Source of the DNA: Alphaproteobacteria bacterium
GTDB lineage: Bacteria; Pseudomonadota; Alphaproteobacteria; SP197
Assembly (NCBI GenBank): GCA_965116515.1
Contig: OZ220705.1
Coordinates: 4,381,113-4,445,112 of the forward strand
Length of the DNA: 64,000 nt
Direction of reading: 5' to 3'
Within the stretch, counting starts at the first letter, position 1; each line of letters opens with the position of its first letter. The notes beneath the pieces were generated by a model, which was not told the DNA's origin, did no database searches, and was given only the letters and a program-made list of their open reading frames with translations. Positions 7,442 through 18,948 of this stretch are shown one piece after another. The translations under genes and the position numbers were made by a program.

Positions 7442-8206
7442 ATGGGTTGCGCCCTTGTCACCGGCGCCGGACGGCGCCTTGGCCTTGCCATGGCGAGGGC
7501 GCTGGCAGCCGACGGATGGCCTGTCGCCCTGGCTGCCCGGAAATCGTTCGCCGAGGCGTGCGCCGAGGCCCGGGATATCACGGGCAGAGGCGGAAGGGCG
7601 CTGGCGATCAGGGGCGACCTCGCTGATCGCCAGACACCGGCAAGGGTGGTCAGGGAGGCCATGGAAGCACTCGGCCCGGTAACGCTTCTGGTCAACAACG
7701 CGGCCGTCTTTATCGATGACAGCGTGCGCACCGCGGGCCCGGACACCATCGACGCCAACATCCACACCAACCTCGTCGCGCCCATGCTGCTCACCAGGGC
7801 CTTTTCCAGACAGCTGCCTTCCTCGGCGCAAGGGTGCGTCATCAACCTGCTTGACCAGCGCGTGTCCAATCCGACGCCCCGCTACATGTCCTACACGGCC
7901 TCGAAGGTGGCGCTCGAGGCGATGACGCGGACATGGGCGCTGGAACTCGCCCCGGCCGTCAGGGTCAATGGAATCGCTCCGGGCATGGCCCTTCCCGACC
8001 ACCGAAGCGATGACGCCGCCATGGACCGCTGGACCGCCGGCTTTCCCCTGGGACGCGGGACGTCTCCGGAAGAAATCTGCGATACCCTGCGATTTCTCAT
8101 CCAGGCGCCGTCCGTGACGGGGCAGGTCATCCACCTCGATGGCGGCCAGCGTCTGGGCTGGCAACATCCGGCGGGCGGCTACCCGCTCGGACCCGACGTG
8201 GCATGA
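7442..8206 (+). CDS. SDR-family oxidoreductase (pteridine-reductase-like context, upstream of folB)
   Basis: VTGAGRRLGLA nucleotide-binding motif, NNAA, YTASKVAL (YxxxK). 4-nt overlap with the next gene. Confidence 0.85.
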   Translation: MGCALVTGAGRRLGLAMARALAADGWPVALAARKSFAEACAEARDITGRGGRALAIRGDLADRQTPARVVREAMEALGPVTLLVNNAAVFIDDSVRTAGPDTIDANIHTNLVAPMLLTRAFSRQLPSSAQGCVINLLDQRVSNPTPRYMSYTASKVALEAMTRTWALELAPAVRVNGIAPGMALPDHRSDDAAMDRWTAGFPLGRGTSPEEICDTLRFLIQAPSVTGQVIHLDGGQRLGWQHPAGGYPLGPDVA

Positions 8207-8610
8207 CCCGCACGCGTGTGTTCATCGAGACCCTGGAGCTCGAGGCATCGATCGGCATCCTCGATCACGAGGCCACCGTCAGGCAGCCTCTCATCGTCGA
8301 TGTCACGCTTGAACTCGAGGGAGGCTCCTGGAAGACCGGGCGCCTCGAGACCACCGTCGATTACCGGGATATCGTCCTGCGGGCACAAGGCATCATTGGC
8401 CGTGGTCACATCCGGCTGGTCGAGGACTTCGCCGAAGACCTGGCGGCAGCCTGCCTGGAGTTGCCGCATGTCACCACGGTCATCGTGCGTGCCGTCAAGC
8501 CCGATGCCGTGCCAGCGGCGCGTGCCGCCGGGGTCGAGATCACGCGGTCACGCGATCCCGACGGTGTCAGGTGGCGACCAGCTGCAGACGCGCCGTCTGC
8601 AGGTGGCTGA
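8203..8610 (+). CDS. folB: Dihydroneopterin aldolase
   Basis: VFIETLELEASIGILDHEATVRQPLIVDVTLEL...TVDYRDIV...LVEDFAEDLA...VKPDAVP..AGVEITR follows the FolB pattern (IGVxDxE..Q.L..D, Y..I, LxE..AE, K..A....VGV.I.R). Confidence 0.8.
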   Translation: MTRTRVFIETLELEASIGILDHEATVRQPLIVDVTLELEGGSWKTGRLETTVDYRDIVLRAQGIIGRGHIRLVEDFAEDLAAACLELPHVTTVIVRAVKPDAVPAARAAGVEITRSRDPDGVRWRPAADAPSAGG

Positions 8611-9283
8611 GGACGATGTCGGCAGCACGATCGGCGTCACGCACTCCAAGGGCCTCGAAGAGCTGGCGATGGTCATGGTTGTAGGAATCCATCGCCTGAC
8701 CGGTGAGCACCTTGTCCTTCATCGCGCTCCACTGGCGGTGTCCGCGAACATGATTGATCCGCCGGTAGAAGGAGCACATCAGCGGATTGTGGGTGGCATC
8801 GGCAATCAACTGGTGGAAGATGCGGTCCTGGCGCGTGAAGGATTCCGGCTCGCCCGACGATTCGAGAGCGTCCAGGGCAATGCCGATGCGGCCGAGATCG
8901 CGCATGGTGGCGTGGACCGTGGCGAGGCGCACCATGTGTGGTTCCACGGCGATCCGCACATCGATCAGTTCGAGGGGGCTGGTGATTTCGGCAATATCGG
9001 GATTCTCGGCGTCGTGGCTGAAGGTGACAAATGTCCCGCTCCCCGCCCGGCGGGAGACGAGGTTGCTGTCGCAGAGCAGGCGCAGGGCTTCACGGACGGT
9101 GGTCCGTGAACACGAGAAGGCATCGGCGAGGACACGCTCGGCAGGCAGGCGTTCACCATCGACATAGATGCCGTCGGCAATCGCCGTGCGCAGCCGGGTG
9201 GCAATGGCGACGGCGGTTCCTGTCCGCGGCAACGGAAGGGGTGTCGTGCGGACCGGGTTCATCGTTGGTCTTGACATCGGCAT
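8567..9283 (-). CDS. GntR-family (FadR/FCD subfamily) transcriptional regulator
   Basis: N-terminal wHTH ERLPAERVLADAFSCSRTTVREALRLL and a helical FCD-like C-domain. Divergent from the FAD-oxidoreductase/GS-like operon. Confidence 0.85.
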   Translation of the reverse strand: MPMSRPTMNPVRTTPLPLPRTGTAVAIATRLRTAIADGIYVDGERLPAERVLADAFSCSRTTVREALRLLCDSNLVSRRAGSGTFVTFSHDAENPDIAEITSPLELIDVRIAVEPHMVRLATVHATMRDLGRIGIALDALESSGEPESFTRQDRIFHQLIADATHNPLMCSFYRRINHVRGHRQWSAMKDKVLTGQAMDSYNHDHRQLFEALGVRDADRAADIVLSHLQTARLQLVAT

Positions 9284-9308
9284 GAAGCGCGTTCTAGGGT
9301 TTTTGGGG

Positions 9309-9334
9309 ATTGGTTGTATTGGTTCACTATTGGT
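9309..9334. promoter_or_regulatory. Candidate operator: three direct ATTGGT repeats in an AT-rich island of the gntR / FAD-oxidoreductase divergent promoter
   Basis: gATTGGTtgtATTGGTtcactATTGGTataac. Repeats start at 9309, 9318 and 9329. This is the only AT-rich patch in an otherwise GC-rich intergenic region. Confidence 0.3.
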
Positions 9335-9422
9335 ATAACTGGCGGGTCACAGATCGTCAAGCACTCTTCTTCCCGTCCTGTCGCGAGGACGGGAGTTGCG
9401 AACAACAGGGGACGAACACCGC

Positions 9423-10760
9423 ATGGCATTCCCGAAAAGCTCACCCTATGTGATCATCGGAGCCGGTATCCACGGCCTTTCGACAGCCTACCACCTTGCT
9501 TTGGAACTGAAGGCGCGAGGACGGGGCGGTGGCGAGGACATTCTCGTTCTGGACAAGACGGGGATTGCGGCCGGCGCCAGCGGCATCGCCTGTGGCGTGG
9601 TCCGCAACAACTACTACCAGCCGGCCATGCGCGAACTCATGGCGCAGAGCGTCGAGGTCTGGGAAAGCGACCCTGAAGCCTACAGCTATCACCCGGTCGG
9701 CTACATGCAGATTTCCAGCGAGTCCATGCATGAGGACGTCACGACGATCTACCAGCAGCAGCAGGCGATCGGCTACGAGTCGGCTTTCATCGAGGGCGCG
9801 GACGACTGCATGACGTACATGAAGTCGATGTTTTCCGACTGGCGGGCACAGAACATCACCTCGGTGCTGCACGAAAAGAAGGGTGGTTACGCCAACAACA
9901 CCGCGTCCATCTACGGGCTTGCCTCCAAGGCGGAAAGCGAGGGTGTCCGTATCATCACCGGCTGCAACGTCACCGGTTTCAGGCGTTCCGGCGAAGCGGT
10001 GAGCGCTGTCATCACGGACCGGGGCACCATCGAGACCGACATGGTCGTGGTGGGCGTGGGGCCGTGGGTCTCCAAGATCTGGACCATGCTCGACCTGCCC
10101 GAGAGCGTCTCCATCAAGGGCGCGGACGGCACGATGCATCACGGCATCGACATGTGGCGCTACTGGTGCCTTGAAGAGGGCACGCTCGGCGTCGATCCGA
10201 ACCTGCAGAAGACGAACGACGGCGGCATGCCTCCGGTCATCCATGTCGACACCGATGCCCCGCTCCATTCCGATATCGATGACTCCGTCATCACCGAAGA
10301 GATGTGGGGCATCTACTACAAGCCCGACTTCAACTTTGCTGGCATCCAGGGCGGTGCCATGCCCTACGAGGTCACCACACCGGTCAATGAAGTGGCGCTC
10401 GATCCCTATGGCCCGGAATCGCCGGACTTCATCGTCGGCGACGAGTTCGCCCACATGTGGTGTTCGGCCCTGGCCCATTGCCAGGAGCGTTTCTCCGGGC
10501 AGATCAGACACTGGAAGAAGGAACCGTCGGGAGGCCTTGGATGTTTCACGCCCGACAGCTTCCCGGTCTTCGATACGATGTGCGAGAATGTCCAGATCAT
10601 CGCCGACTCCAATCATGGCTACAAGATGATCGGGGTCGGCAAGCTCGTGGCCGCCGAGTGCGTTGGCGAGACCATGGCGTTGCTCGAGCCATTCCGATTT
10701 TCACGTTATGCCGAAGGACAACTGCATCCGGTGTCGAACAGCCCCTTCCCGTGGAGCTGA
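9423..10760 (+). CDS. FAD-dependent oxidoreductase, DAO / sarcosine-oxidase-beta-like
   Basis: N-terminal dinucleotide fold YVIIGAGIHGLSTAYHLA..VLDK..IAAGASGIACGVV. About 445 aa from ATG 9423. The TTG at 9396 is less likely. Confidence 0.8.
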   Translation: MAFPKSSPYVIIGAGIHGLSTAYHLALELKARGRGGGEDILVLDKTGIAAGASGIACGVVRNNYYQPAMRELMAQSVEVWESDPEAYSYHPVGYMQISSESMHEDVTTIYQQQQAIGYESAFIEGADDCMTYMKSMFSDWRAQNITSVLHEKKGGYANNTASIYGLASKAESEGVRIITGCNVTGFRRSGEAVSAVITDRGTIETDMVVVGVGPWVSKIWTMLDLPESVSIKGADGTMHHGIDMWRYWCLEEGTLGVDPNLQKTNDGGMPPVIHVDTDAPLHSDIDDSVITEEMWGIYYKPDFNFAGIQGGAMPYEVTTPVNEVALDPYGPESPDFIVGDEFAHMWCSALAHCQERFSGQIRHWKKEPSGGLGCFTPDSFPVFDTMCENVQIIADSNHGYKMIGVGKLVAAECVGETMALLEPFRFSRYAEGQLHPVSNSPFPWS

Positions 10761-10833
10761 CAAGGTTACCGGCCCCGGTAATCCAGGCAAGAAGGACAAT
10801 CCAAAGAACCGACCCTAAGGGAGAGCAGGATCC

Positions 10834-12306
10834 ATGCCGATGGACATCGAACGTTACGTTGAACAGGAAGGCCGCGCCGAAAGGGTGCGCCAGGTGCGCG
10901 AGAAGATCGATGAACTGAACATCGATTACATCTACTACCAGTTCATTTCCGTGACCGGGCGCATTGTCGGCAAGGGTGTTCCCGCCGATCACTGGGAGAC
11001 CATTGCCGAGCGGGGTTTCCAGCTGGTCTACGGTTCGGTCGCCAATCTCTATGTCGACCGTTACGGAAGCTACATCGGTTACGGGCCGGAATCATCCGAG
11101 CTTGTGGGCATCCCCGATCCGGAGACATTCGTACAGCTGCCCTGGGACAAGCGTGTGGCGCGGGTCTACTGCACCTGCTTCCGCAACCGCGAGGAACCCG
11201 TCAATCCGGGCGCCTTCTTCACGGGAGACTGCCGCGGCAACCTGCGGCGCACCCACGACGCCTTCCAGGAGAAGCACAACGGCCTGCATCTGCGCCATGG
11301 CACCGAGCCGGAGATGATGTGGCTCAAGAAGGGCGAGGACGGCCTGCCTGATGGCGGATTTTCCAAGCCGAACTGCTATCACATCGACCAGTTCGAGAGT
11401 CTGCGTCCGGTTTTCATGAAGGCGATCGAGTACAGCCGCGCCATGGGCCTCGACATGATCCAGGGCGACCATGAGGACGCACCGGGTCAGCTGGAGCTGA
11501 ACTTCCAGTTCGACGATGCCCTGCGCACCGCCGACCGCCTCACCACCTACCGGCAGATCTGTGCCCAGGTGGCGCGCGAGAACAACCTCGTGGCGTGCTT
11601 CATGTCGAAGCCCTTCATGGGTGTCTCGGCATCGGGGTGCCACCACAATGTGTCCCTGTGGACGGGCGGCGCCGACGAGATCAACCCTCTGGGCCAGGAC
11701 CAGCCGGCGGGCATGATCGAGAACTTCGTCTATCGCAAGGGCGGCACCAACACCTTCCTTCCGGACGGCTCCGATCCGCGCAAGCCCGGCAGCGTCGGCC
11801 TCAAGGCCATCGGTGGCGTCATGGCGCATCTCGGCGCCCTCACGGCCATCGGCTGCTCCACGGTCAACTCCTACCGCCGCCTGTGGGACACGGGCTTCTG
11901 GGCTCCGGTGTTTGCCGACTGGGGATACCAGAACCGGACCACCGGCATGCGCGTCTCGGCACCGGGACGTTTCGAGTACCGGGCTGTCGACTCCATGGTC
12001 AACCCCTACCTCATGGCCGGCGCTCTGCTGCAGGCTTTCGACGACGGCATCGACAACGATCTCGATCCCGGCGAGCCCGAGGAGCGCAACATCTACCAGG
12101 CCATGGAAGAGGGCAAACTGGTCAAGAAGCTGCCGATGTCGCTGGGTGATGCCCTCGATCGCCTGCGCGATGACGAGGTGATCAGATCATCGATGCCGGG
12201 CGACATGTACAAGGTCTTCATGCACTACAAGACCAACGAGTGGGAGACCTTCATGGCCACCGTCACCGGATGGGACATGGAGACCTACTGGGATTGCCTG
12301 CCCTGA
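10834..12306 (+). CDS. Glutamine-synthetase-family gamma-glutamyl ligase (GlnT/GmaS/PuuA-like)
   Basis: GS catalytic-domain pattern GTEPEMMWL...HEDAPGQLELNFQFDDALRTADRL..YRQI...FMSKPFMGVSASGCHHNVSLW...NSYRRL. GGGAGAG lies upstream of the ATG. Confidence 0.85.
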   Translation: MPMDIERYVEQEGRAERVRQVREKIDELNIDYIYYQFISVTGRIVGKGVPADHWETIAERGFQLVYGSVANLYVDRYGSYIGYGPESSELVGIPDPETFVQLPWDKRVARVYCTCFRNREEPVNPGAFFTGDCRGNLRRTHDAFQEKHNGLHLRHGTEPEMMWLKKGEDGLPDGGFSKPNCYHIDQFESLRPVFMKAIEYSRAMGLDMIQGDHEDAPGQLELNFQFDDALRTADRLTTYRQICAQVARENNLVACFMSKPFMGVSASGCHHNVSLWTGGADEINPLGQDQPAGMIENFVYRKGGTNTFLPDGSDPRKPGSVGLKAIGGVMAHLGALTAIGCSTVNSYRRLWDTGFWAPVFADWGYQNRTTGMRVSAPGRFEYRAVDSMVNPYLMAGALLQAFDDGIDNDLDPGEPEERNIYQAMEEGKLVKKLPMSLGDALDRLRDDEVIRSSMPGDMYKVFMHYKTNEWETFMATVTGWDMETYWDCLP

Positions 12307-12322
12307 CAGGCAGAGTGTCAGT

Positions 12323-12350
12323 GCGGCGGCGGGACGCGTCCCGCTGCCGC
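12323..12350 (+). other. Intercistronic GC stem-loop between the GS-like and amidotransferase-like genes
   Basis: GCGGCGGCGGGACG/CGTCCCGCTGCCGC near-perfect inverted repeat (one mismatch) inside the 70-nt gap. Confidence 0.4.
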
Positions 12351-12376
12351 CCGACGACAAGGGGAGACAACAAGGC

Positions 12377-13312
12377 ATGTGTGGCATTGCAGGCATCATT
12401 CACCGCAACAGGTCATCCGACATCGGCTCGGAAATGACCTCCATGTTGCAGTCGCTCAAGCACAGGGGACCGGACTCGACGGGATTTGCCATCTACGGCA
12501 TGCCCCGGGAGGACGAGTTTGTCCTGCGCTTCAAGGTCGCCGAACAGGAAGACGCGGCAAAGGGCTACAACATTCACCAGGAAATCCGGGACCGCCGGGC
12601 CGAAGTCGACCGCCGTCTCGCCGAACTCGGGGTGGAGGTGGTCGAGACCGTCGATGCCACGGAGTACGCCTATCGCTACCGCATCAAACATGGCGGCGAC
12701 ATGCGCAAGGTGGCCGACTACGTCGAGGACGTGACCTCCACCGAGATCCTCTCTCTCGGGAGCCGCCTTGAGCTGATCAAGGATCTTGGAGACGCATCGA
12801 CCGTGTCGGACCAGTACGCGCTCAGGGGCTTCAATGGCACCCATGCCATCGGGCACACCCGCATGGCCACGGAATCGGATGTCGACATCCGTTCTGCCCA
12901 TCCCTACTGGGCCTATCCCTACAACGACATCGCCGTGGTGCATAACGGCCAGCTCACCAACTACTGGATCATGCGCCGCGAACTCGAGCGCAAGGACTTC
13001 CGCTTCATGTCGAGCTGCGACAGCGAGCTCATCTCGGTCTACCTCGCCGACAAGCTGCAGGAAGGCGTCGATCTGGAAGAGGCCATGGTGCAGTCGGTCG
13101 ACGAATTCGACGGAGTCTTCACCTACCTCGTGGCGACGTCGGACAAACTCGGCATGGCCAAGGACGACATGGCCGCCAAGCCCATGGTGCTCTACGAGAG
13201 CGACGACCTGGTGGCCATGGCCTCCGAAGAGGTCGCCATCCGCCAGGTCCTGCCCCACGAAATCGACACGCACGATCCCTACGACCGGGAGGTTCGGGTA
13301 TGGCAGAGCTGA
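12377..13312 (+). CDS. Class-II (Ntn) glutamine-amidotransferase-like subunit (GlxB/MgsA-like)
   Basis: Starts MCGIAGI (N-terminal nucleophile Cys), ...HTRMATES...HPY...VHNGQLTNY. Confidence 0.85.
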   Translation: MCGIAGIIHRNRSSDIGSEMTSMLQSLKHRGPDSTGFAIYGMPREDEFVLRFKVAEQEDAAKGYNIHQEIRDRRAEVDRRLAELGVEVVETVDATEYAYRYRIKHGGDMRKVADYVEDVTSTEILSLGSRLELIKDLGDASTVSDQYALRGFNGTHAIGHTRMATESDVDIRSAHPYWAYPYNDIAVVHNGQLTNYWIMRRELERKDFRFMSSCDSELISVYLADKLQEGVDLEEAMVQSVDEFDGVFTYLVATSDKLGMAKDDMAAKPMVLYESDDLVAMASEEVAIRQVLPHEIDTHDPYDREVRVWQS

Positions 13313-14145
13313 ACGAGACCGCGCGCTCCCACGACATGGGGCTGCATACCGAGCAGCTCACAGGGCGCACGCAGCAGAGGTTCTTCGATGTCAGCGAAGA
13401 GGGGAACCATCTCTACCCGGAAGCGTTTGACGTCGATTACAACAAGCGCGCCATCATCGATGCCATCGACATGGATGCCCGGGGCGTGAACCGGAAGATC
13501 CGTGACCTGATGGCCGAAGGATACGGCTCCATCGTTGTCCGCAATCCCCAGGCCCGCCATTCCCTGGCCGTGGGTATCCTGCAGCGGCTCAACCTGACCT
13601 TCGAGGGAAGCCTCGGGTACTTTGGCGTCGGGCTCATTGACGGCCCCAATGTCAGGGTGACCGGCCGCGTGGGCTGGTCATGCGCCGAGAACATGATGGC
13701 CGGCACCGTGATCGTCGAAAAGAACGCCGGTTCGACCTTCGGGGCCGCCATGCGTGGCGGCGATCTCGTCTGCATGGGCGATGTCGGTTCGCGGACGGGC
13801 ATCGACCAGAAGGGCGGCACCATCATCGTCGGTGGCCGGACCGGCGCATTCTCGGCGTTCATGATGCAGCGGGGCCGCATGATCGTGCTTGGCAACGCGG
13901 GCAAGAACCTCGGTGATTCGATGTACGACGGAACCATATTCGTAGGAGGCTCGATCGAGAGTCTCGGTGTCGATGCCGTGCCAGGAGAAATGTCCGATCT
14001 CGATTGCGCCTGGCTCGAGCGCAAACTCGGCATGTATGGCCTCAGGGCGCCGGACGGTGTCGCCAACATGACCAAGATCGTCGCCGGCAAGCAGCTCTGG
14101 AACTACGACAATCTTGAACCGTCAGAGAAGAAGATCGTTCTCTAG
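13300..14145 (+). CDS. GXGXG-motif beta-helix subunit (glutamate synthase alpha C-terminal-domain-like; GlxC/MgsB-like)
   Basis: Repetitive G-rich beta-helix pattern GSLGYFGVGL..GRVGWSCAENMMAGTVIVEKNAGSTFGAAMRGGDLVCMGDVGSRTGIDQKGGTIIVGG. Overlaps the upstream gene by 13 nt. Confidence 0.8.
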   Translation: MAELNETARSHDMGLHTEQLTGRTQQRFFDVSEEGNHLYPEAFDVDYNKRAIIDAIDMDARGVNRKIRDLMAEGYGSIVVRNPQARHSLAVGILQRLNLTFEGSLGYFGVGLIDGPNVRVTGRVGWSCAENMMAGTVIVEKNAGSTFGAAMRGGDLVCMGDVGSRTGIDQKGGTIIVGGRTGAFSAFMMQRGRMIVLGNAGKNLGDSMYDGTIFVGGSIESLGVDAVPGEMSDLDCAWLERKLGMYGLRAPDGVANMTKIVAGKQLWNYDNLEPSEKKIVL

Positions 14146-14167
14146 GCCGGTGGGAGACAACCAGAAA

Positions 14168-15520
14168 ATGACCGCAGACGCTAACGGCAATGGCCGCAAC
14201 AGGGAAATCCTCGGCGAGAATTTCATGTTTCCGCCACGGGTGGTCGACGACATCCACATCAAGGCCGAACTCGGACGGTACCGCATGCGCGGCATGGCCC
14301 TGTTCAAGAAGATCCCGACCTGGGACGATCTCACCTTCCTTCCGGGTACCCTCACCCGTTTCGTGATCGAGGGATATCGCGAAAAGTGCCAGACACGGAC
14401 CGTGATCGGGCCCCGCGCCGGACGTCCCCTGGTTCTCGATATTCCGGTCTATGTCACCGGCATGAGCTTCGGCGCCCTGAGCTACGAGGCGAAGACCGCG
14501 CTGGCCCGCGGCGCCACCATGGCGGGCACGGCGACGTGTTCCGGCGAAGGCGGCATGATCCCCGATGAACGCCGCTACTCGGAAAAATGGTTCTACCAGT
14601 GCATCCAGTCGCGCTACGGCTTCAATCCGCATCACCTGCGGCTGGCCGACGGTTGCGAGTTCTTCATCGGCCAGGGCTGCAAGGTCGGCCTTGGCGGTCA
14701 TCTCATGGGCCAGAAGGTCACCGACCAGGTGGCCGAGATGCGGTCCCTGCCTGCGGGTATCGACCAGCGCTCGCCGGCACGCCATCCCGACTGGCTGGGC
14801 CCCGACGACCTGGCCCTCAAGATCCAGGAAATTCGCGAAGCCACGAACTACCAGATCCCGATCCAGCTCAAGCTTGGTGCGGCGCGGGTCTACGATGACG
14901 TGCGCATGGCCGTGAAGTGCGATCCCGACTCCATCTACATCGATGGCATGGAAGGTTCGACCGGGGCAGGCCCCCACCTTGCCACCGAGGAAACCGGCAT
15001 TCCCGGTATCGCAGCCATACGTCAGGCCAGGCGGGCGATCGATGATCTCGGCAAGCGCGGCGAAATCACGCTCATCTACGCCGGTGCGGTGAGAAACGGC
15101 GGTGATCTGGCGAAGGCGCTCGCTCTCGGCGCCGACGCGGTCGCCATCGGGACCACCGCCATGATGGCTCTCAACTGCAACAAGGACATCCCGGAGGCGG
15201 ACTTCGAGGGTACCATCGGGGTTCCTGCCGGATACTGCTACCACTGCCATACCGGCCGCTGCCCGGTCGGTGTCGCAACCCAGGATCCGGAGTTGCGCAA
15301 GCGCCTCAACCCCGATGATGCGGCCGAACGCGTCTACAACATCCTCCATACACTGACCATCGAATGCCAGATGATGGCGCGGGCCTGTGGCAAGACCAAC
15401 GTTCACAGCCTCGAACCGGAGGATCTGGCGGCACTGACCATGGAAGCCTCGGCCATGGCGGGCGTCCCCCTGGCAGGGACCAGTCACACCGTCGGCGTCG
15501 ATGACTACCACCACCTCTGA
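14168..15520 (+). CDS. FMN-dependent glutamate-synthase-domain subunit (GlxD/MgsC-like)
   Basis: Pattern MSFGALS.EAK.ALA.GA...G....SGEGG...QGAKxGxGG.L...KV..EIA..R...PG...SP..H.D...EDL (seen as VTGMSFGALSYEAKTALARGATMAGTATCSGEGG...IGQGCKVGLGGHLMGQKV). ATG 14168 is preceded by GGGAGA. Confidence 0.85.
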   Translation: MTADANGNGRNREILGENFMFPPRVVDDIHIKAELGRYRMRGMALFKKIPTWDDLTFLPGTLTRFVIEGYREKCQTRTVIGPRAGRPLVLDIPVYVTGMSFGALSYEAKTALARGATMAGTATCSGEGGMIPDERRYSEKWFYQCIQSRYGFNPHHLRLADGCEFFIGQGCKVGLGGHLMGQKVTDQVAEMRSLPAGIDQRSPARHPDWLGPDDLALKIQEIREATNYQIPIQLKLGAARVYDDVRMAVKCDPDSIYIDGMEGSTGAGPHLATEETGIPGIAAIRQARRAIDDLGKRGEITLIYAGAVRNGGDLAKALALGADAVAIGTTAMMALNCNKDIPEADFEGTIGVPAGYCYHCHTGRCPVGVATQDPELRKRLNPDDAAERVYNILHTLTIECQMMARACGKTNVHSLEPEDLAALTMEASAMAGVPLAGTSHTVGVDDYHHL

Positions 15521-15538
15521 CCCGGACAGGTAACGCAG

Positions 15539-15940
15539 ATGACAGGCACAACTGACAAAACGGCCGACGTCGACTACTTCCTCACTTCGGACGGTCTTGA
15601 CACGTCCCGCGAGAAAGAGATCGGCCAGCACATCGGCTATCGCTACGACGTCAACCTGCTTCCCGACTATGACCGGTTGACGCCGTTCCTGAAGACCTAC
15701 ATCGAACTCATGGGCTGGGACGATCTCAACTGGCTCGAGGATGTCCACATGGGCTACGAAGAAGGTCATGCCGCGGTCTTCGACCGCAATGCGAATGGCT
15801 GGATTCGCGTTCCCGAATCCTTGGACCTGCCGGACAACCAGCAGGACCGCGACATGATCGCCCGTGAGCTCCTGATCAAGTTCCAGATGTCGGATCGCCA
15901 TCCCATGCGCGATCTCTACCGCGCCTATCGCAAGTTCTGA
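15539..15940 (+). CDS. Hypothetical acidic 133-aa protein, last gene of the gamma-glutamyl module
   Basis: Uninterrupted ORF with a GC3-rich codon pattern, 18 nt after the upstream stop and followed by a hairpin. No motif recognised. Confidence 0.55.
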   Translation: MTGTTDKTADVDYFLTSDGLDTSREKEIGQHIGYRYDVNLLPDYDRLTPFLKTYIELMGWDDLNWLEDVHMGYEEGHAAVFDRNANGWIRVPESLDLPDNQQDRDMIARELLIKFQMSDRHPMRDLYRAYRKF

Positions 15941-15948
15941 TCGTCACC

Positions 15949-15969
15949 TGCCGGCGGCGACCGCCGGCA
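15949..15969 (+). terminator. Terminator-like GC hairpin after the operon (no clear U-tract)
   Basis: TGCCGGCGG-cga-CCGCCGGCA, 9-bp perfect stem beginning 9 nt after the stop codon. Confidence 0.35.
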
Positions 15970-16103
15970 CCAGTACCTGCTCTCCCATCCCGGAAAGGCA
16001 CGGACGCCTGTCGCGCCACCGGGCTGGTCGTCCCCCTCCCGATTCCTGGTGACGTTCCCGACCCATGCGGACCCGCCGGCGGCGCGGCGCTCGGGCAGAC
16101 CCG

Positions 16104-16664
16104 TCAGACCTGTGTCACAGGAGGGTTGGCGACGGCTCTCTCCCAGTCGGGAAGGAAGGCAAGCGCGCGCGGCGCTGCAGGCGGCGGGGCAAACAGGGCA
16201 TTGTGCCAGAAGAGCGCCGTGGCGAAGCGATCGTCGCCCGGCAGGTCCTGAACGTCGCATGGCAGGATCCAGGACTGGCTGAACTGCTCGAAATGGAGTG
16301 TCGCGCTGCCAGCGGCAACGAGAGCGGCGGCACCCGGTGACTGCCGGGAGAACTGAGCGAACAGCCGCGGCTCGAAATCCCGCGATGTCTGGAAGTAGGT
16401 TGCTGCCAGGTGCTTCAGCCCCTTCTCGAAGCGCTCCCGGGGATCATGGGTGCCCGAGACCGTCTGGCGAAAGAGAGCCGCCGCGTCGGCCGGCTCCCTC
16501 TCGATGAGGACCGTCCGGACGTGGCCGAGGATGCCGCCGTCGGCAAGGACGGCACGGGGTGTCATGGCGCTGGAGGGACGCCCGTTCTCCCGGCGCATGG
16601 CGTGCTGGCGAATGAGGCACTGCCAGGCCATGAACGCGTCTCGCAGGGCATTCTCCCCGGCCAT
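16104..16664 (-). CDS. Hypothetical protein (186 aa), translationally coupled to yggT-like gene
   Basis: GC3-rich ORF. Its ATG lies 6 nt after the upstream stop, with GAGGAG inside the end of the upstream gene. No motif recognised. Confidence 0.55.
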   Translation of the reverse strand: MAGENALRDAFMAWQCLIRQHAMRRENGRPSSAMTPRAVLADGGILGHVRTVLIEREPADAAALFRQTVSGTHDPRERFEKGLKHLAATYFQTSRDFEPRLFAQFSRQSPGAAALVAAGSATLHFEQFSQSWILPCDVQDLPGDDRFATALFWHNALFAPPPAAPRALAFLPDWERAVANPPVTQV

Positions 16665-16670
16665 GGCTCC

Positions 16671-17042
16671 TCAGAAACCGCCGAGCCCGCCACCGAAGAG
16701 ATCGTAGAGGATGGCGGCGATTTCTCCCTCGAGGGGGAAGGACAGCATGCCGAGCACCGAGTACCCGAGAATCCAGGGCAGGACGTAGAAGCGGAACAGG
16801 AAGAAGAACCAGGCGACGAAAAGCGGCACGATGGGGTCGATGAGAAATCCCGGCGTCACCGGCCGGAAGACCCGCAGGACCGGATCGGTCAGCATGACGA
16901 ACGCCCGCATGAAGAAAAAGTCGGATGTCACGGGAAGGAAGATGTTCATGGCCGCGCGGCCAATCAGCGTCCACATGATGGCGCCGAGGATGTAGTCGAG
17001 GCCCACCACCCACCAGGGGAGAACAGCCGCCAGGCTGGTCAT
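16671..17042 (-). CDS. YggT-family small membrane protein
   Basis: 123 aa with four hydrophobic segments. Pattern ...DPVLRVFRPVTP...DPIVPLFVAWFFF resembles YGGT repeats. Confidence 0.65.
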   Translation of the reverse strand: MTSLAAVLPWWVVGLDYILGAIMWTLIGRAAMNIFLPVTSDFFFMRAFVMLTDPVLRVFRPVTPGFLIDPIVPLFVAWFFFLFRFYVLPWILGYSVLGMLSFPLEGEIAAILYDLFGGGLGGF

Positions 17043-17075
17043 CGGATCACGGCTCCCGGGCTGTCATGAACAGAC

Positions 17076-17106
17076 AAGGGGGCGGACAAGAACTGTCCGC
17101 CCCCTT
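17076..17106 (-). terminator. Intrinsic-terminator-like hairpin downstream of the symporter gene
   Basis: AAGGGGGCGGACA-agaac-TGTCCGCCCCCTT, 13-bp perfect stem 25 nt after the stop of the 17131-18948 gene. The trailing T-run on the minus strand is weak. Confidence 0.55.
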
Positions 17107-17130
17107 GCAACAAGGGTCTTAAATGATGCG

Positions 17131-18948
17131 TCAGTGCGTTTCAGCCAGGATCGTCTTTCCTGTCGGAACGCGGGTTTCATCCACCATGGCCTGCATCTCG
17201 GCATCCGGTGCTTCGGTGATCAGCGAAACCACGACCATCGCCACCAGCGAGACCGGCATGCCGATCATGCCGAACCGGAGGTGATCGATCGACCACAGCT
17301 GGTCACCACCGTTGTAGACGTGGATGAGGTAGATCGTCCCCGCCGCAAAACCGGCAATCATGCCTGCGATCGCCCCTGGCCTGTTGGCGCGTTTCCACCA
17401 GATTCCCAGAACCAGCGGGAAGAACAGGCCCGAGCATGCGAAGCAGAAGGCCCATGCCACAGCCCCCAGAATGCCCGTGAGCTGCAACGACGCGATCAGG
17501 GCCGCAAGGACACCGATAACCACCAGGAGGACACGGGCGACAATCAGACGACGCTTCGTATCGGCCTTGGGATCGATGATCTTGTAGTAGAGATCGTGGC
17601 TCAGCGCGTTGGCGATCGCCAGCAGCAGACCGTCGGCGGTCGACATCGCTGCCGCCATGCCTCCGGCTGCCACAAGCCCCGAAATCACGTAGGGCAGACC
17701 GGCAATTTCCGGTGTTGCCAGCACGACGATGTCGGGCCTCATGAAGAACTCGTTGAGCTGGACGATGCCATCACCGTTCTGGTCGACGACCGAAAGCATG
17801 CCGACCGCTGTCCAGTTCTGGATCCACTCGAGATTGGTGACGTCGTCAATCGCCTTGCCGACCACTGCCGTTGCCAGATTCGGATCGAGAAGCTGGAGCT
17901 TTGTCAGGGTCGCCAGTGCCGGCGCCGTGAAGTAGAGCAGGAAGATGAAGAACAGGGACCAGCCCACCGACTTGCGCGCCTGACGCACCGACGGCGTCGT
18001 GAAGTAGCGCATGAGGATGTGCGGCAGGGAGGCCGTGCCCGCCATCATGCACAGGGCGAGAGTCACGAACTTCCATGAGTCGAGCCCGCCCTGCGGATCG
18101 AAGTGGGCCGTTGTCAGAACCTTCAGCCCCGCCACGCCTTGAGCCGCCGCCACAAGGCCGTATTCCGCCTCGAGTTCGGCAATACGCAATGCCGCGTCAC
18201 CATAGGTGAAGTGCGGGATGATGCCGAAGCCCTGGGCATTCGACATCCAGATCACGGGCACCAGATAGGCGATGATGAGGACGATGTACTGCGCCACCTG
18301 TGTCCAGGTCACGCCGCGCATGCCACCCAGCATCGAACACAGCAGGATGCCCAGAAGTCCGAACCACACACCGAATTCAAACGGTATGGCAAGGGCCCGG
18401 GCGGCAATCGTGCCGGTCGCGTTGATCTGTGCCGTCACATAGGTGAACGACGCGACCACGAGCACCAGCACGGCACAGAGCCGCGCCAGGTTGCCACCGT
18501 AACGTGTACCGATGAAGTCGGGCACCGTGTAGCAACCGAATTTCCTGAGATAGGGCGCCATCAGGGCGTTGACGAGCACGTATCCGCCCGTCCAGCCAAT
18601 GACAAACCCGAGATAGGGATAACCACCGAAGTAGATTCCTCCCGCCAGGGCGACAAACGACGCACCGGACATCCAGTCCGCTGCTGTCGCCATGCCGTTG
18701 TAGAATGCCGGAACTTCACGTCCGGCAACGTAGTAGGCATCGACCTGCATGGTTCGCGAGAGCCAGCCGATGGTGGCGTAGATCGCAATGGTGAACAGGA
18801 GGAAGAGGATGCCGATCAGCTGGGCGCTTGCACCAAGCTGCTCGACAATCGCCATCAGGGCAAAGAATCCCAGGAATCCAAGGGTGTAGATCCCGTAGAC
18901 CTTGCCCAGACGGTCGACAAAACGGGTTCCCTGTGTTTGATCGCTCAT
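17131..18948 (-). CDS. Sodium:solute symporter (SSS) family permease, ActP-like
   Basis: 605 aa, multi-TM, typical SSS N-terminus. Immediately preceded by a DUF4212-type small subunit. Confidence 0.9.
   Translation of the reverse strand: MSDQTQGTRFVDRLGKVYGIYTLGFLGFFALMAIVEQLGASAQLIGILFLLFTIAIYATIGWLSRTMQVDAYYVAGREVPAFYNGMATAADWMSGASFVALAGGIYFGGYPYLGFVIGWTGGYVLVNALMAPYLRKFGCYTVPDFIGTRYGGNLARLCAVLVLVVASFTYVTAQINATGTIAARALAIPFEFGVWFGLLGILLCSMLGGMRGVTWTQVAQYIVLIIAYLVPVIWMSNAQGFGIIPHFTYGDAALRIAELEAEYGLVAAAQGVAGLKVLTTAHFDPQGGLDSWKFVTLALCMMAGTASLPHILMRYFTTPSVRQARKSVGWSLFFIFLLYFTAPALATLTKLQLLDPNLATAVVGKAIDDVTNLEWIQNWTAVGMLSVVDQNGDGIVQLNEFFMRPDIVVLATPEIAGLPYVISGLVAAGGMAAAMSTADGLLLAIANALSHDLYYKIIDPKADTKRRLIVARVLLVVIGVLAALIASLQLTGILGAVAWAFCFACSGLFFPLVLGIWWKRANRPGAIAGMIAGFAAGTIYLIHVYNGGDQLWSIDHLRFGMIGMPVSLVAMVVVSLITEAPDAEMQAMVDETRVPTGKTILAETH

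Follow-up and report, generated by a model that had tools for sequence, protein, structure and literature searches.

Here we describe a gene cluster in a 64,000-nt stretch of DNA (62% G+C; hereafter, the window) from a sponge-associated bacterium (Alphaproteobacteria bacterium, assembly GCA_965116515.1, contig OZ220705.1), the genome of which is 4.71 Mb in a single contig and 99.5% complete. A sequence-only reading of this window had listed seven genes, namely those for a divergent GntR regulator, an FAD oxidoreductase, a glutamine synthetase (GS)-family ligase, an Ntn amidotransferase-like protein, a GXGXG beta-helix protein, an FMN protein, and a 133-aa protein. These genes, their order, their tight spacing, and a closing hairpin at 15949-15969 were all found as described when the window was examined with Pfam and NCBIfam, and a gene for a 186-aa protein adds to the list. 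The locus is an eight-gene unit (gntR, flavoenzyme, ligase, GlxB, GlxC, GlxD, 133-aa protein, and 186-aa protein), which we call the module and which has the following features.

8567-9283, minus strand: GntR/FCD-family transcription regulator, divergent from the operon (Pfam GntR PF00392, 67.7 bits; FCD PF07729, 81.5 bits).
9309-9334, no strand assigned: three ATTGGT direct repeats (at 9309, 9318, and 9329) read in the sequence, candidate operator.
9423-10760, plus strand: stand-alone SoxB-like FAD oxidoreductase of the DAO family, 445 aa (Pfam DAO, residues 18-233 only).
10834-12306, plus strand: GmaS-like gamma-glutamyl-amine ligase of the GS family, 490 aa (Pfam Gln-synt_C, 260 bits).
12377-13312, plus strand: GlxB/MgsA-like Ntn amidotransferase subunit (Pfam GATase_6/7; N-terminus MCGIAG with Cys1 kept).
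13300-14145, plus strand: GlxC/MgsB-like beta-helix subunit (Pfam GXGXG, 59 bits; syntenic in module loci).
14168-15520, plus strand: GlxD/MgsC-like FMN subunit (Pfam Glu_synthase, 293 bits).
15539-15940, plus strand: 133-aa protein, probably an additional synthase subunit (unmatched in Pfam and NCBIfam).
15949-15969, no strand assigned: perfect 9-bp GC hairpin between the convergent genes of the 133-aa and 186-aa proteins.
16104-16664, minus strand: 186-aa accessory protein, predicted PNPOx-like FMN-binding split barrel (from a structure model; no Pfam match).

Within the operon, the intergenic spacers are 18-73 nt long, except for a 13-nt overlap of glxB with glxC. The open frame of glxD begins with a TTG at 14114, and the gene itself is placed at 14168-15520. 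The hairpin at 15949-15969 reads TGCCGGCGG-CGA-CCGCCGGCA; its 9-bp stem has no mismatch, and, lacking a T-run, it was passed over by the terminator scan.

The recurrence of this arrangement is far beyond chance. A flavoenzyme-based scan with one genome per species found more than 596 loci, of which 80 were kept, and the identities and context counts given here refer to those 80. The module is present in 47 of these flavoenzyme-centred loci with an identity of 61-99% per protein, and its hosts belong to Alpha- and Gammaproteobacteria, Burkholderiaceae, Acidobacteriota, Latescibacterota, Gemmatimonas, Binatia, and Candidatus Cybelea; it is also found in soil and freshwater phyla. The flavoenzyme gene is located directly upstream of the ligase gene in 41 of the 47 module loci, gntR is divergent from it in 33, and the 133-aa gene follows glxD within 400 nt in 36 of 37 loci. 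The gene most often found nearby encodes an Amt-family transporter (15 of 47 loci). Distribution was further counted in a class sample of 301 Alphaproteobacteria genomes, 24 with and 277 without the module, which are related and are not independent samples.

Aligned to the structures 7cql and 9qur, the ligase keeps the amine-site residues Tyr147, Gln175, Asp177, Glu179, Glu186, Asn188, and Lys30' of RhGmaS, the numbering of which comes from the structure of the Rhodovulum enzyme (PMC7948447). A Trp residue replaces the Glu flap of GS, and the GmaS-type Asp is also present; the amine-site residues and the Trp residue were all kept in the group consensus of 45 module and 11 canonical ligases. 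The GmaS-type pocket with its Trp flap points to a ligase that would act on a small amine rather than as a glutamine synthetase. Against the model of GmaS/type III glutamate-ammonia ligase (TIGR03105), the protein scored 294.6 bits in two matched stretches, which is below the cut-off of 469.6, and two other ligases of the source genome scored above it (656 and 516 bits); the score against the gamma-glutamylputrescine synthetase model was 210 bits (cut-off, 650). The module ligase has two extra segments, namely a conserved one of ~10 aa in the region of the Asp50' loop of the neighbouring subunit and an insert of ~25 aa after SLW(R)GG.

The three genes behind the ligase match the MgsABC-type subunits in order, namely an Ntn amidotransferase with Cys1, a GXGXG protein, and an FMN-binding Glu_synthase protein, and the GlxB orthologues are 61-99% identical across module loci. 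A split glutamate synthase together with a GS-family ligase is also the domain set expected of an assimilatory GS/GOGAT-like ammonia system, in which the flavoenzyme would serve as the electron donor. This explanation is scarcely credible, however, given that the ligase has the GmaS-type Asp in place of the GS Glu flap, that the cluster contains no GltD-like NAD(P)H subunit, and that ordinary GS and GOGAT homologues are encoded elsewhere in the source genome, outside the cluster.

The closest known system is the N-methylglutamate pathway. The designation glnT-glxBCD was the first one given to its genes, in rhizobia and SAR11, and the same genes are called gmaS-mgsABC (with mgdABCD) in Methyloversatilis, Methylocella, and Ruegeria pomeroyi. 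The likeness extends over the order of the ligase and the amidotransferase/GXGXG/FMN subunits, the amine pocket, the Trp flap, and the genomic company of Tdm (the demethylase of trimethylamine N-oxide), Amt, and mgd-like genes. In contrast to that pathway, the module of the window adds the 133-aa and 186-aa proteins and a GntR regulator with ATTGGT repeats, usually has a SoxB-like flavoenzyme gene in the first position, and has a ligase that falls below the TIGR03105 cut-off and carries the two extra segments. By identity to GlxD of the window, the MgsC/GlxD homologues fall into three classes: those of the module (80-95%), canonical MgsC-type proteins (50-54%), and fused proteins (~43%). Canonical MgsC is held together with the module in 11 of the 24 module genomes and is missing from the other 13, including the source genome, and in a SAR11-like genome of only 1.4 Mb the module, canonical gmaS-mgsABC, and mgd-like genes are found side by side. 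These identity classes point to the module as a separate, paralogous sister lineage of gmaS-mgsABC/glnT-glxBCD. In the source genome, a search for canonical three-subunit mgsABC found none; a fused GXGXG-FMN homologue is located at 0.51 Mb. The sequence-only reading had taken the locus for a gamma-glutamyl-amine/N-alkylglutamate-type module related to gmaS-mgsABC, and this has been borne out; profile searches found the GlxBCD-type domains, although the proteins all scored well below the cut-offs of the nearest named families (TIGR03105, TIGR01373, and the putrescine synthetase).

PuuA/PuuB (gamma-glutamylputrescine synthetase and oxidase) likewise combines a GS-family ligase with a flavoenzyme of the DAO family. 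The module differs from it in having the glutamate-synthase-like trio and in the absence of an aldehyde dehydrogenase and of PuuD in the cluster.

As to the 133-aa protein, its gene stays behind glxD at the loci where the flavoenzyme gene has been relocated (L029, L035, L043, L055, and L087), and it stays with the synthase genes in a genome (G069) where the flavoenzyme is absent. Because it is retained where the flavoenzyme has moved or is missing, the 133-aa protein belongs with the synthase genes and not with the flavoenzyme, and it is probably a fourth subunit of the synthase. Among 27 sequences, 55 residues are invariant. The structure model is of middling confidence (pLDDT, 76); Foldseek found nothing in the PDB at E <= 0.001, and the wide search with VIA-align gave a best Z of 3.1, which at this middling quality of the model does not establish a new fold. 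Some orthologues have a Lys/Ala/Pro-rich N-terminal tail of 20-45 residues with a histone-H1-like look (L031:6876-7397, L072:9504-10004, L086:16129-16614, and L014:16247-16696); the copy of the window does not have such a tail.

For the 186-aa protein, a profile built from 21 members found the family in 23 of the 24 module genomes and in none of the 277 others, and the gene is adjacent to that of the 133-aa protein in 19 of the 23 holders. No Pfam match was obtained at E = 1 with three members searched. The structure model has a pLDDT of 95.5 and superimposes by VIA-align on 3db0_B with a Z of 12.5 and a root-mean-square deviation of 2.2 A over 116 of 124 residues; among the top Foldseek matches, 159 chains reached Z >= 8, and all listed chains were PNPOx-like split barrels. 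The model thus predicts a PNPOx-like FMN-binding split barrel as the eighth member of the module. The predicted fold is common to the PNPOx-like superfamily (3db0, Rv2074, and general stress protein 26), while the 186-aa protein differs from it in matching no sequence family and in having extra helices (186 aa vs ~125-160).

The flavoenzyme scored 76.4 bits against the SoxB model TIGR01373 (cut-off, 529.45) and 44.6 bits against TIGR01377, the model of monomeric sarcosine oxidase (MSOX; cut-off, 479.65), and is below the cut-off in both cases. In a profile search of the PDB, the best matches were 1y56_B and SoxB, aligned at positions 3-235 and 375-435, and MSOX chains matched weakly; the beta subunits of SoxB/MgdA and of P. 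horikoshii proline dehydrogenase (1y56_B) are hence its nearest relatives over the FAD part and the C-terminal end. Unlike SoxB/MgdA, the flavoenzyme of the window is not accompanied by genes for alpha, gamma, and delta partners and has ~140 central residues that align to no solved structure, and true SoxB-family genes are also present in the genome. Its orthologues at the 80 loci are 69-96% identical.

It had been proposed from the sequence that this single FAD enzyme, together with the small 133-aa protein, replaces the heterotetrameric dehydrogenase MgdABCD. That reading was right in so far as no mgdABCD-type genes are located in or next to the window; no soxA/D/G-like genes were found in the cluster or the window either, and the source genome has three true SoxB-family genes, the nearest of them more than 180 kb away. 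The replacement itself did not hold. The 133-aa protein tracks glxD, and the neighbourhood survey did not support its partnership with the FAD enzyme, which also occurs without the module. Furthermore, four of the 24 module genomes, all of them with Tdm and one of them closed, do not encode the flavoenzyme, and SoxB/MgdA-type heterotetramer genes were found with strong matches in 23 of the 24, in four cases within 10 kb of the module. Since the SoxB/MgdA genes persist and the flavoenzyme is optional, the flavoenzyme supplements the heterotetrameric dehydrogenase rather than replacing it; a replacement of mgdABCD is therefore unsupported, and the two enzymes are considered to work alongside each other. 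Consistent with this, the flavoenzyme gene and true SoxB/SoxA-family genes adjoin at several loci (as one same-strand row of genes in L021 and L070), and in the SAR11-like genome the flavoenzyme gene is found beside a full canonical gmaS-mgsABC-mgd set. New in comparison with the sequence-only reading are thus the link of the 133-aa protein with the synthase, the 186-aa protein as the eighth member, the additive role of the flavoenzyme, and the co-occurrence with Tdm described below.

An orthologue of the flavoenzyme is present in 28 of the 301 Alphaproteobacteria, namely in 20 of the 24 module genomes and in eight genomes without the module. In 19 of these 20 module genomes, flavoenzyme and module are no more than ~7.5 kb apart. 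When ten loci with the flavoenzyme alone were checked, the module was found elsewhere in six of the genomes and was absent from four, namely those of Pelagibius marinus, Hellea balneolensis, Leucothrix pacifica, and Thalassovita mangrovi. In the phylogenetic tree, copies in and out of the cluster interleave. Outside the module, the neighbours of the flavoenzyme gene are GbdR/TmaR-like AraC regulators, true SoxB/SoxA-family genes (as in L021 and L070), Rieske oxygenases, BCCT transporters, a DmdA-type protein, and Amt with canonical gmaS/mgsABC. In Hellea balneolensis (L074:10001-12600) and its relatives (L073 and L083), for example, the flavoenzyme gene is followed by that of the DmdA-type protein and faces a BCCT transporter gene, with a Rieske oxygenase and a NuoF-like protein encoded upstream. 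Pelagibacter has a like trio (SAR11_1304, 1303, and 1302), in which the flavoenzyme is annotated as monomeric sarcosine oxidase (Sun et al., PMC3160333). We considered that such contexts might represent the pathway from betaine via dimethylglycine to sarcosine and dropped this idea: NCBIfam assigned the stand-alone GcvT-like neighbour in Hellea to the DmdA-type demethylases of dimethylsulfoniopropionate and the Rieske protein to distant relatives of GbcA, so that these contexts show only the catabolism of methylated osmolytes. At five loci (L137-L141, in G044, G160, G084, G275, and G068), we saw a sister family with a full-length identity of ~41% to the flavoenzyme; a gene for a fatty-acid-desaturase-like membrane protein adjoins it in three of the five, a context that gave no lead.

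As to which amine the module handles, the distribution of Tdm was surveyed. The Tdm-type protein of the source genome (DUF1989 plus GCV_T) was used as the query, and PF11927 served as a proxy for DmmA. Tdm was found in 20 of the 301 Alphaproteobacteria, and 15 of these 20 hold the module; in other words, Tdm is present in 15 of the 24 module genomes vs five of the 277 others. Of the five Tdm genomes without the module, three have DmmA, which in two cases is separated from canonical mgsC by 7-8 kb. The fourth, 75% complete, comes from the same genus as a module holder, and the fifth has neither the module nor DmmA. PF11927 as a whole is present in 32 of the 301 genomes; a single module genome is among them, with a weak match, and the source genome gave no match. 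Tdm and the module are also physically linked: the distance between the two does not exceed 10 kb in five genomes of the class sample, and Tdm is found within 10 kb of the flavoenzyme in eight of the 47 loci, including those of Latescibacterota, where its gene separates those of the 133-aa protein and the flavoenzyme, and of Terriglobia. The tightest link seen is in a metagenome-assembled genome of Latescibacterota (L055:615-12761), where the genes for the ligase, GlxBCD, the 133-aa protein, Tdm, the flavoenzyme, and Amt are arranged on one strand. Canonical MgsC is absent in 10 of the 15 genomes with Tdm and the module, including the source genome.

From the genes of the cluster and their company, the module very probably serves the catabolism of a small methylated amine via glutamate. 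As for the identity of this amine, dimethylamine (DMA) is the candidate that we tentatively favour; it would be gamma-glutamylated, moved onto 2-oxoglutarate, and demethylated stepwise. If the module were for methylamine only, 14 of the 15 genomes with Tdm and the module would be left without a step beyond DMA, i.e., from DMA to methylamine; if it uses DMA, all of them are complete. In SAR11, dmmDABC is absent, and tdm and gmaS are present (PMC5520151). The known route of DMA disposal on the way from trimethylamine N-oxide to ammonia is DMA monooxygenase, DmmDABC, of the haem-dependent oxidative N-demethylase family (PF11927). The job would be shared, but the proteins and the chemistry are unrelated: DmmDABC is a monooxygenase that uses NADPH and O2 and yields methylamine, whereas the module would depend on ATP and proceed via glutamate, with no need for methylamine to be set free. 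The Km of canonical GmaS is 16 mM for DMA vs 27 uM for methylamine (PMC7948447), and with such a high Km for DMA a ligase dedicated to DMA would make sense. The sequence-only reading had raised a different primary amine as the substrate; a substrate other than that of the canonical pathway does appear likely, but the secondary amine DMA seems likelier than a primary one.

The same evidence has been weighed for a second stand-alone methylamine pathway, which corresponds to the simplified variant suggested in the sequence-only reading and in which the ligase would form gamma-glutamylmethylamide, the GlxBCD-like enzyme would form N-methylglutamate, and the single flavoenzyme would release glutamate and free formaldehyde. 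All methylamine-pocket residues of GmaS are kept, no neighbour is commoner than an Amt transporter, the SoxB-like flavoenzyme is usually encoded by the first gene of the operon, and the module could be the methylamine route of the 13 genomes that do not have canonical MgsC. We nonetheless regard this pathway as rather unlikely. Besides the missing step from DMA, the canonical system is also present in 11 of the 24 module genomes and is adjacent in the 1.4-Mb SAR11-like genome, where redundancy is unexpected; the SoxB/MgdA-type heterotetramers are kept in 23 of the 24, and the flavoenzyme is missing from four. Also, the 133-aa protein, the 186-aa protein, and the inserts of the ligase point to a different job.

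Another explanation is that the substrate is some other small nitrogen compound such as ethylamine, ethanolamine, hydroxylamine, or a metabolite of sponge or soil, the link with Tdm then reflecting a shared regulon for methylated osmolytes. GmaS-type ligases are indeed promiscuous and accept ethylamine, hydroxylamine, and propylamine (PMC7948447), phyla of soil and freshwater carry the module, as do nine genomes without Tdm, and the flavoenzyme is found in varied osmolyte clusters. The recurrent neighbours, however, relate specifically to methylated amines (Tdm, Amt, canonical gmaS/mgs, and mgd-like genes), and no gene for an aldehyde dehydrogenase or for longer-chain substrates is among them, although no aimed search was made for these; we hence hold this explanation to be improbable.

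Several points weigh against DMA as the substrate. The first-shell amine pocket of the ligase is that of the methylamine enzyme, and the sequence demands no second methyl group. Amt, which is found at 15 of the 47 loci, fits ammonium or methylammonium better than DMA. Nine of the 24 module genomes are without Tdm, and in the source genome Tdm is 2.4 Mb away from the module. PF11927 is only a proxy for Dmm, and its overlap with the module over the whole sample (one observed vs ~2.6 expected) is not significantly below chance. The co-occurrence counts come from related genomes and are not independent. The flavoenzyme without the module is located in mixed clusters for methylated osmolytes, and its substrate may hence not be N-methylglutamate. 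Finally, no study that characterises or names the module was found in the literature on glxBCD/glnT, on clusters of GS-like and glutamate-synthase-like genes, and on mgs/gma/mgd.

With DMA as the substrate, the chemical steps that we infer from the gene content, conservation, co-occurrence, folds, and ligase pocket residues would be as follows. The GmaS-like ligase would first attach the amine to the gamma-carboxyl group of glutamate at the expense of ATP. The GlxBCD/MgsABC-like enzyme, probably with the 133-aa protein as its fourth subunit, would then cleave the amide at the Cys1 site and pass the amine to the FMN subunit, where it would be fixed on 2-oxoglutarate; the product would be N,N-dimethylglutamate (or N-methylglutamate, if the substrate is methylamine). 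The SoxB-like flavoenzyme would take off one methyl group as formaldehyde, and the last methyl group would be removed either by a heterotetrameric SoxB/MgdA-type dehydrogenase of the genome or by the same flavoenzyme. The 186-aa split barrel is predicted to be a flavin-binding helper, and regulation of the operon would fall to the GntR/FCD protein through binding to the ATTGGT repeats. It is possible, and here we are a little more reserved than about the substrate, that the module amounts to a complete, Dmm-independent route of DMA via N,N-dimethylglutamate, with two demethylations on glutamate and with two protein families (the 133-aa protein and the split barrel) that have no described members.

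Methylated amines are a large nitrogen pool in marine environments and soil and are precursors of climate-active aerosols. The module tracks Tdm and appears instead of DmmA, which makes the question of DMA directly testable. If DMA is the substrate, the "DMA bottleneck" postulated for SAR11 and for many other bacteria that hold Tdm and lack Dmm would be resolved by the module; Tdm-bearing bacteria without Dmm, SAR11 among them, have been held unable to dispose of DMA (PMC5520151). The 133-aa and 186-aa families, furthermore, gain a defined biochemical setting, together with in-situ RNA evidence from sponge symbionts.

With regard to regulation, ATTGGT/ACCAAT was found in 38 of the 39 intergenic regions between gntR and the flavoenzyme gene in several phyla, mostly as two to four direct repeats, and a CGTCAAGC box is located downstream of the repeats in ~25 of the 39. 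A GbdR/TmaR-like AraC regulator takes the place of gntR at some loci. In R. pomeroyi, the GntR regulator TmoR is reported to be DMA-responsive (PMC13390433). Just 5' of the ribosome-binding site of the flavoenzyme gene, an 8-bp leader hairpin is formed at 9372-9394 (CCCGTCCT...AGGACGGG); it is retained in the closest relatives, with both arms changed in L009, and was not seen at the distant loci compared. An Rfam search of 8000-17500 with E up to 1 gave no match.

The stretch of the window was matched in sponge metagenomes and in runs from four host organisms that are identified by code. In three sponge metatranscriptome studies, the RNA libraries contain contigs that align to 9322-16043 at 90-99% identity, and a single RNA contig spans the genes of the flavoenzyme and the ligase; these contigs come from close relatives and indicate presence in RNA libraries, not the level of expression. 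One of the studies has two runs in which a contig begins at 9322, within the ATTGGT repeats, which is a weak hint that this position might be a transcription start site. The genes for GntR and the 186-aa protein have almost no coverage by RNA contigs, and no conclusion is drawn from this absence.

Other regions of the source genome hold relatives of the module proteins. A second module-type ligase of 495 aa, 65% identical to that of the window, is encoded at G000:C1:4652807-4654273 (L103:12789-14276) without GlxBCD. An amino-acid ABC transporter precedes it and a PhyH-family Fe/2OG dioxygenase comes next; the surroundings also include two DMGDH-like genes, a further GS-like gene, and what appear to be genes for glutathione-dependent formaldehyde detoxification (named from N-terminal sequence only). 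This ligase and the PhyH protein may represent a second way to treat a gamma-glutamyl amide; PhyH homologues also adjoin gntR in 10 of the 47 flavoenzyme-centred module loci. A third kind of split glutamate-synthase-like set is encoded at 506-511 kb (L104) and consists of a GlxB-like gene, the gene for the fused GXGXG-FMN protein (657 aa; 43% identity to GlxD of the module), and one for a GltD-like/FMN protein of 859 aa. The fused GlxD-type protein (~43% identical) recurs in many module genomes.

On the flanks of the module, the upstream genes (uvrB, SDR, and folB) are housekeeping genes, the synteny of which is limited to close relatives; the folB-like gene (8203-8610, plus strand) and gntR (8567-9283, minus strand) overlap by 44 nt at their convergent 3' ends. 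Upstream of the 186-aa gene, a YggT-like gene (16671-17042) and an SSS symporter gene (17131-18948) are syntenic only in the closest relatives (L009-L012). A functional pair of YggT and the 186-aa protein looks unlikely, because the 186-aa gene elsewhere tracks the module and not the YggT/SSS genes.

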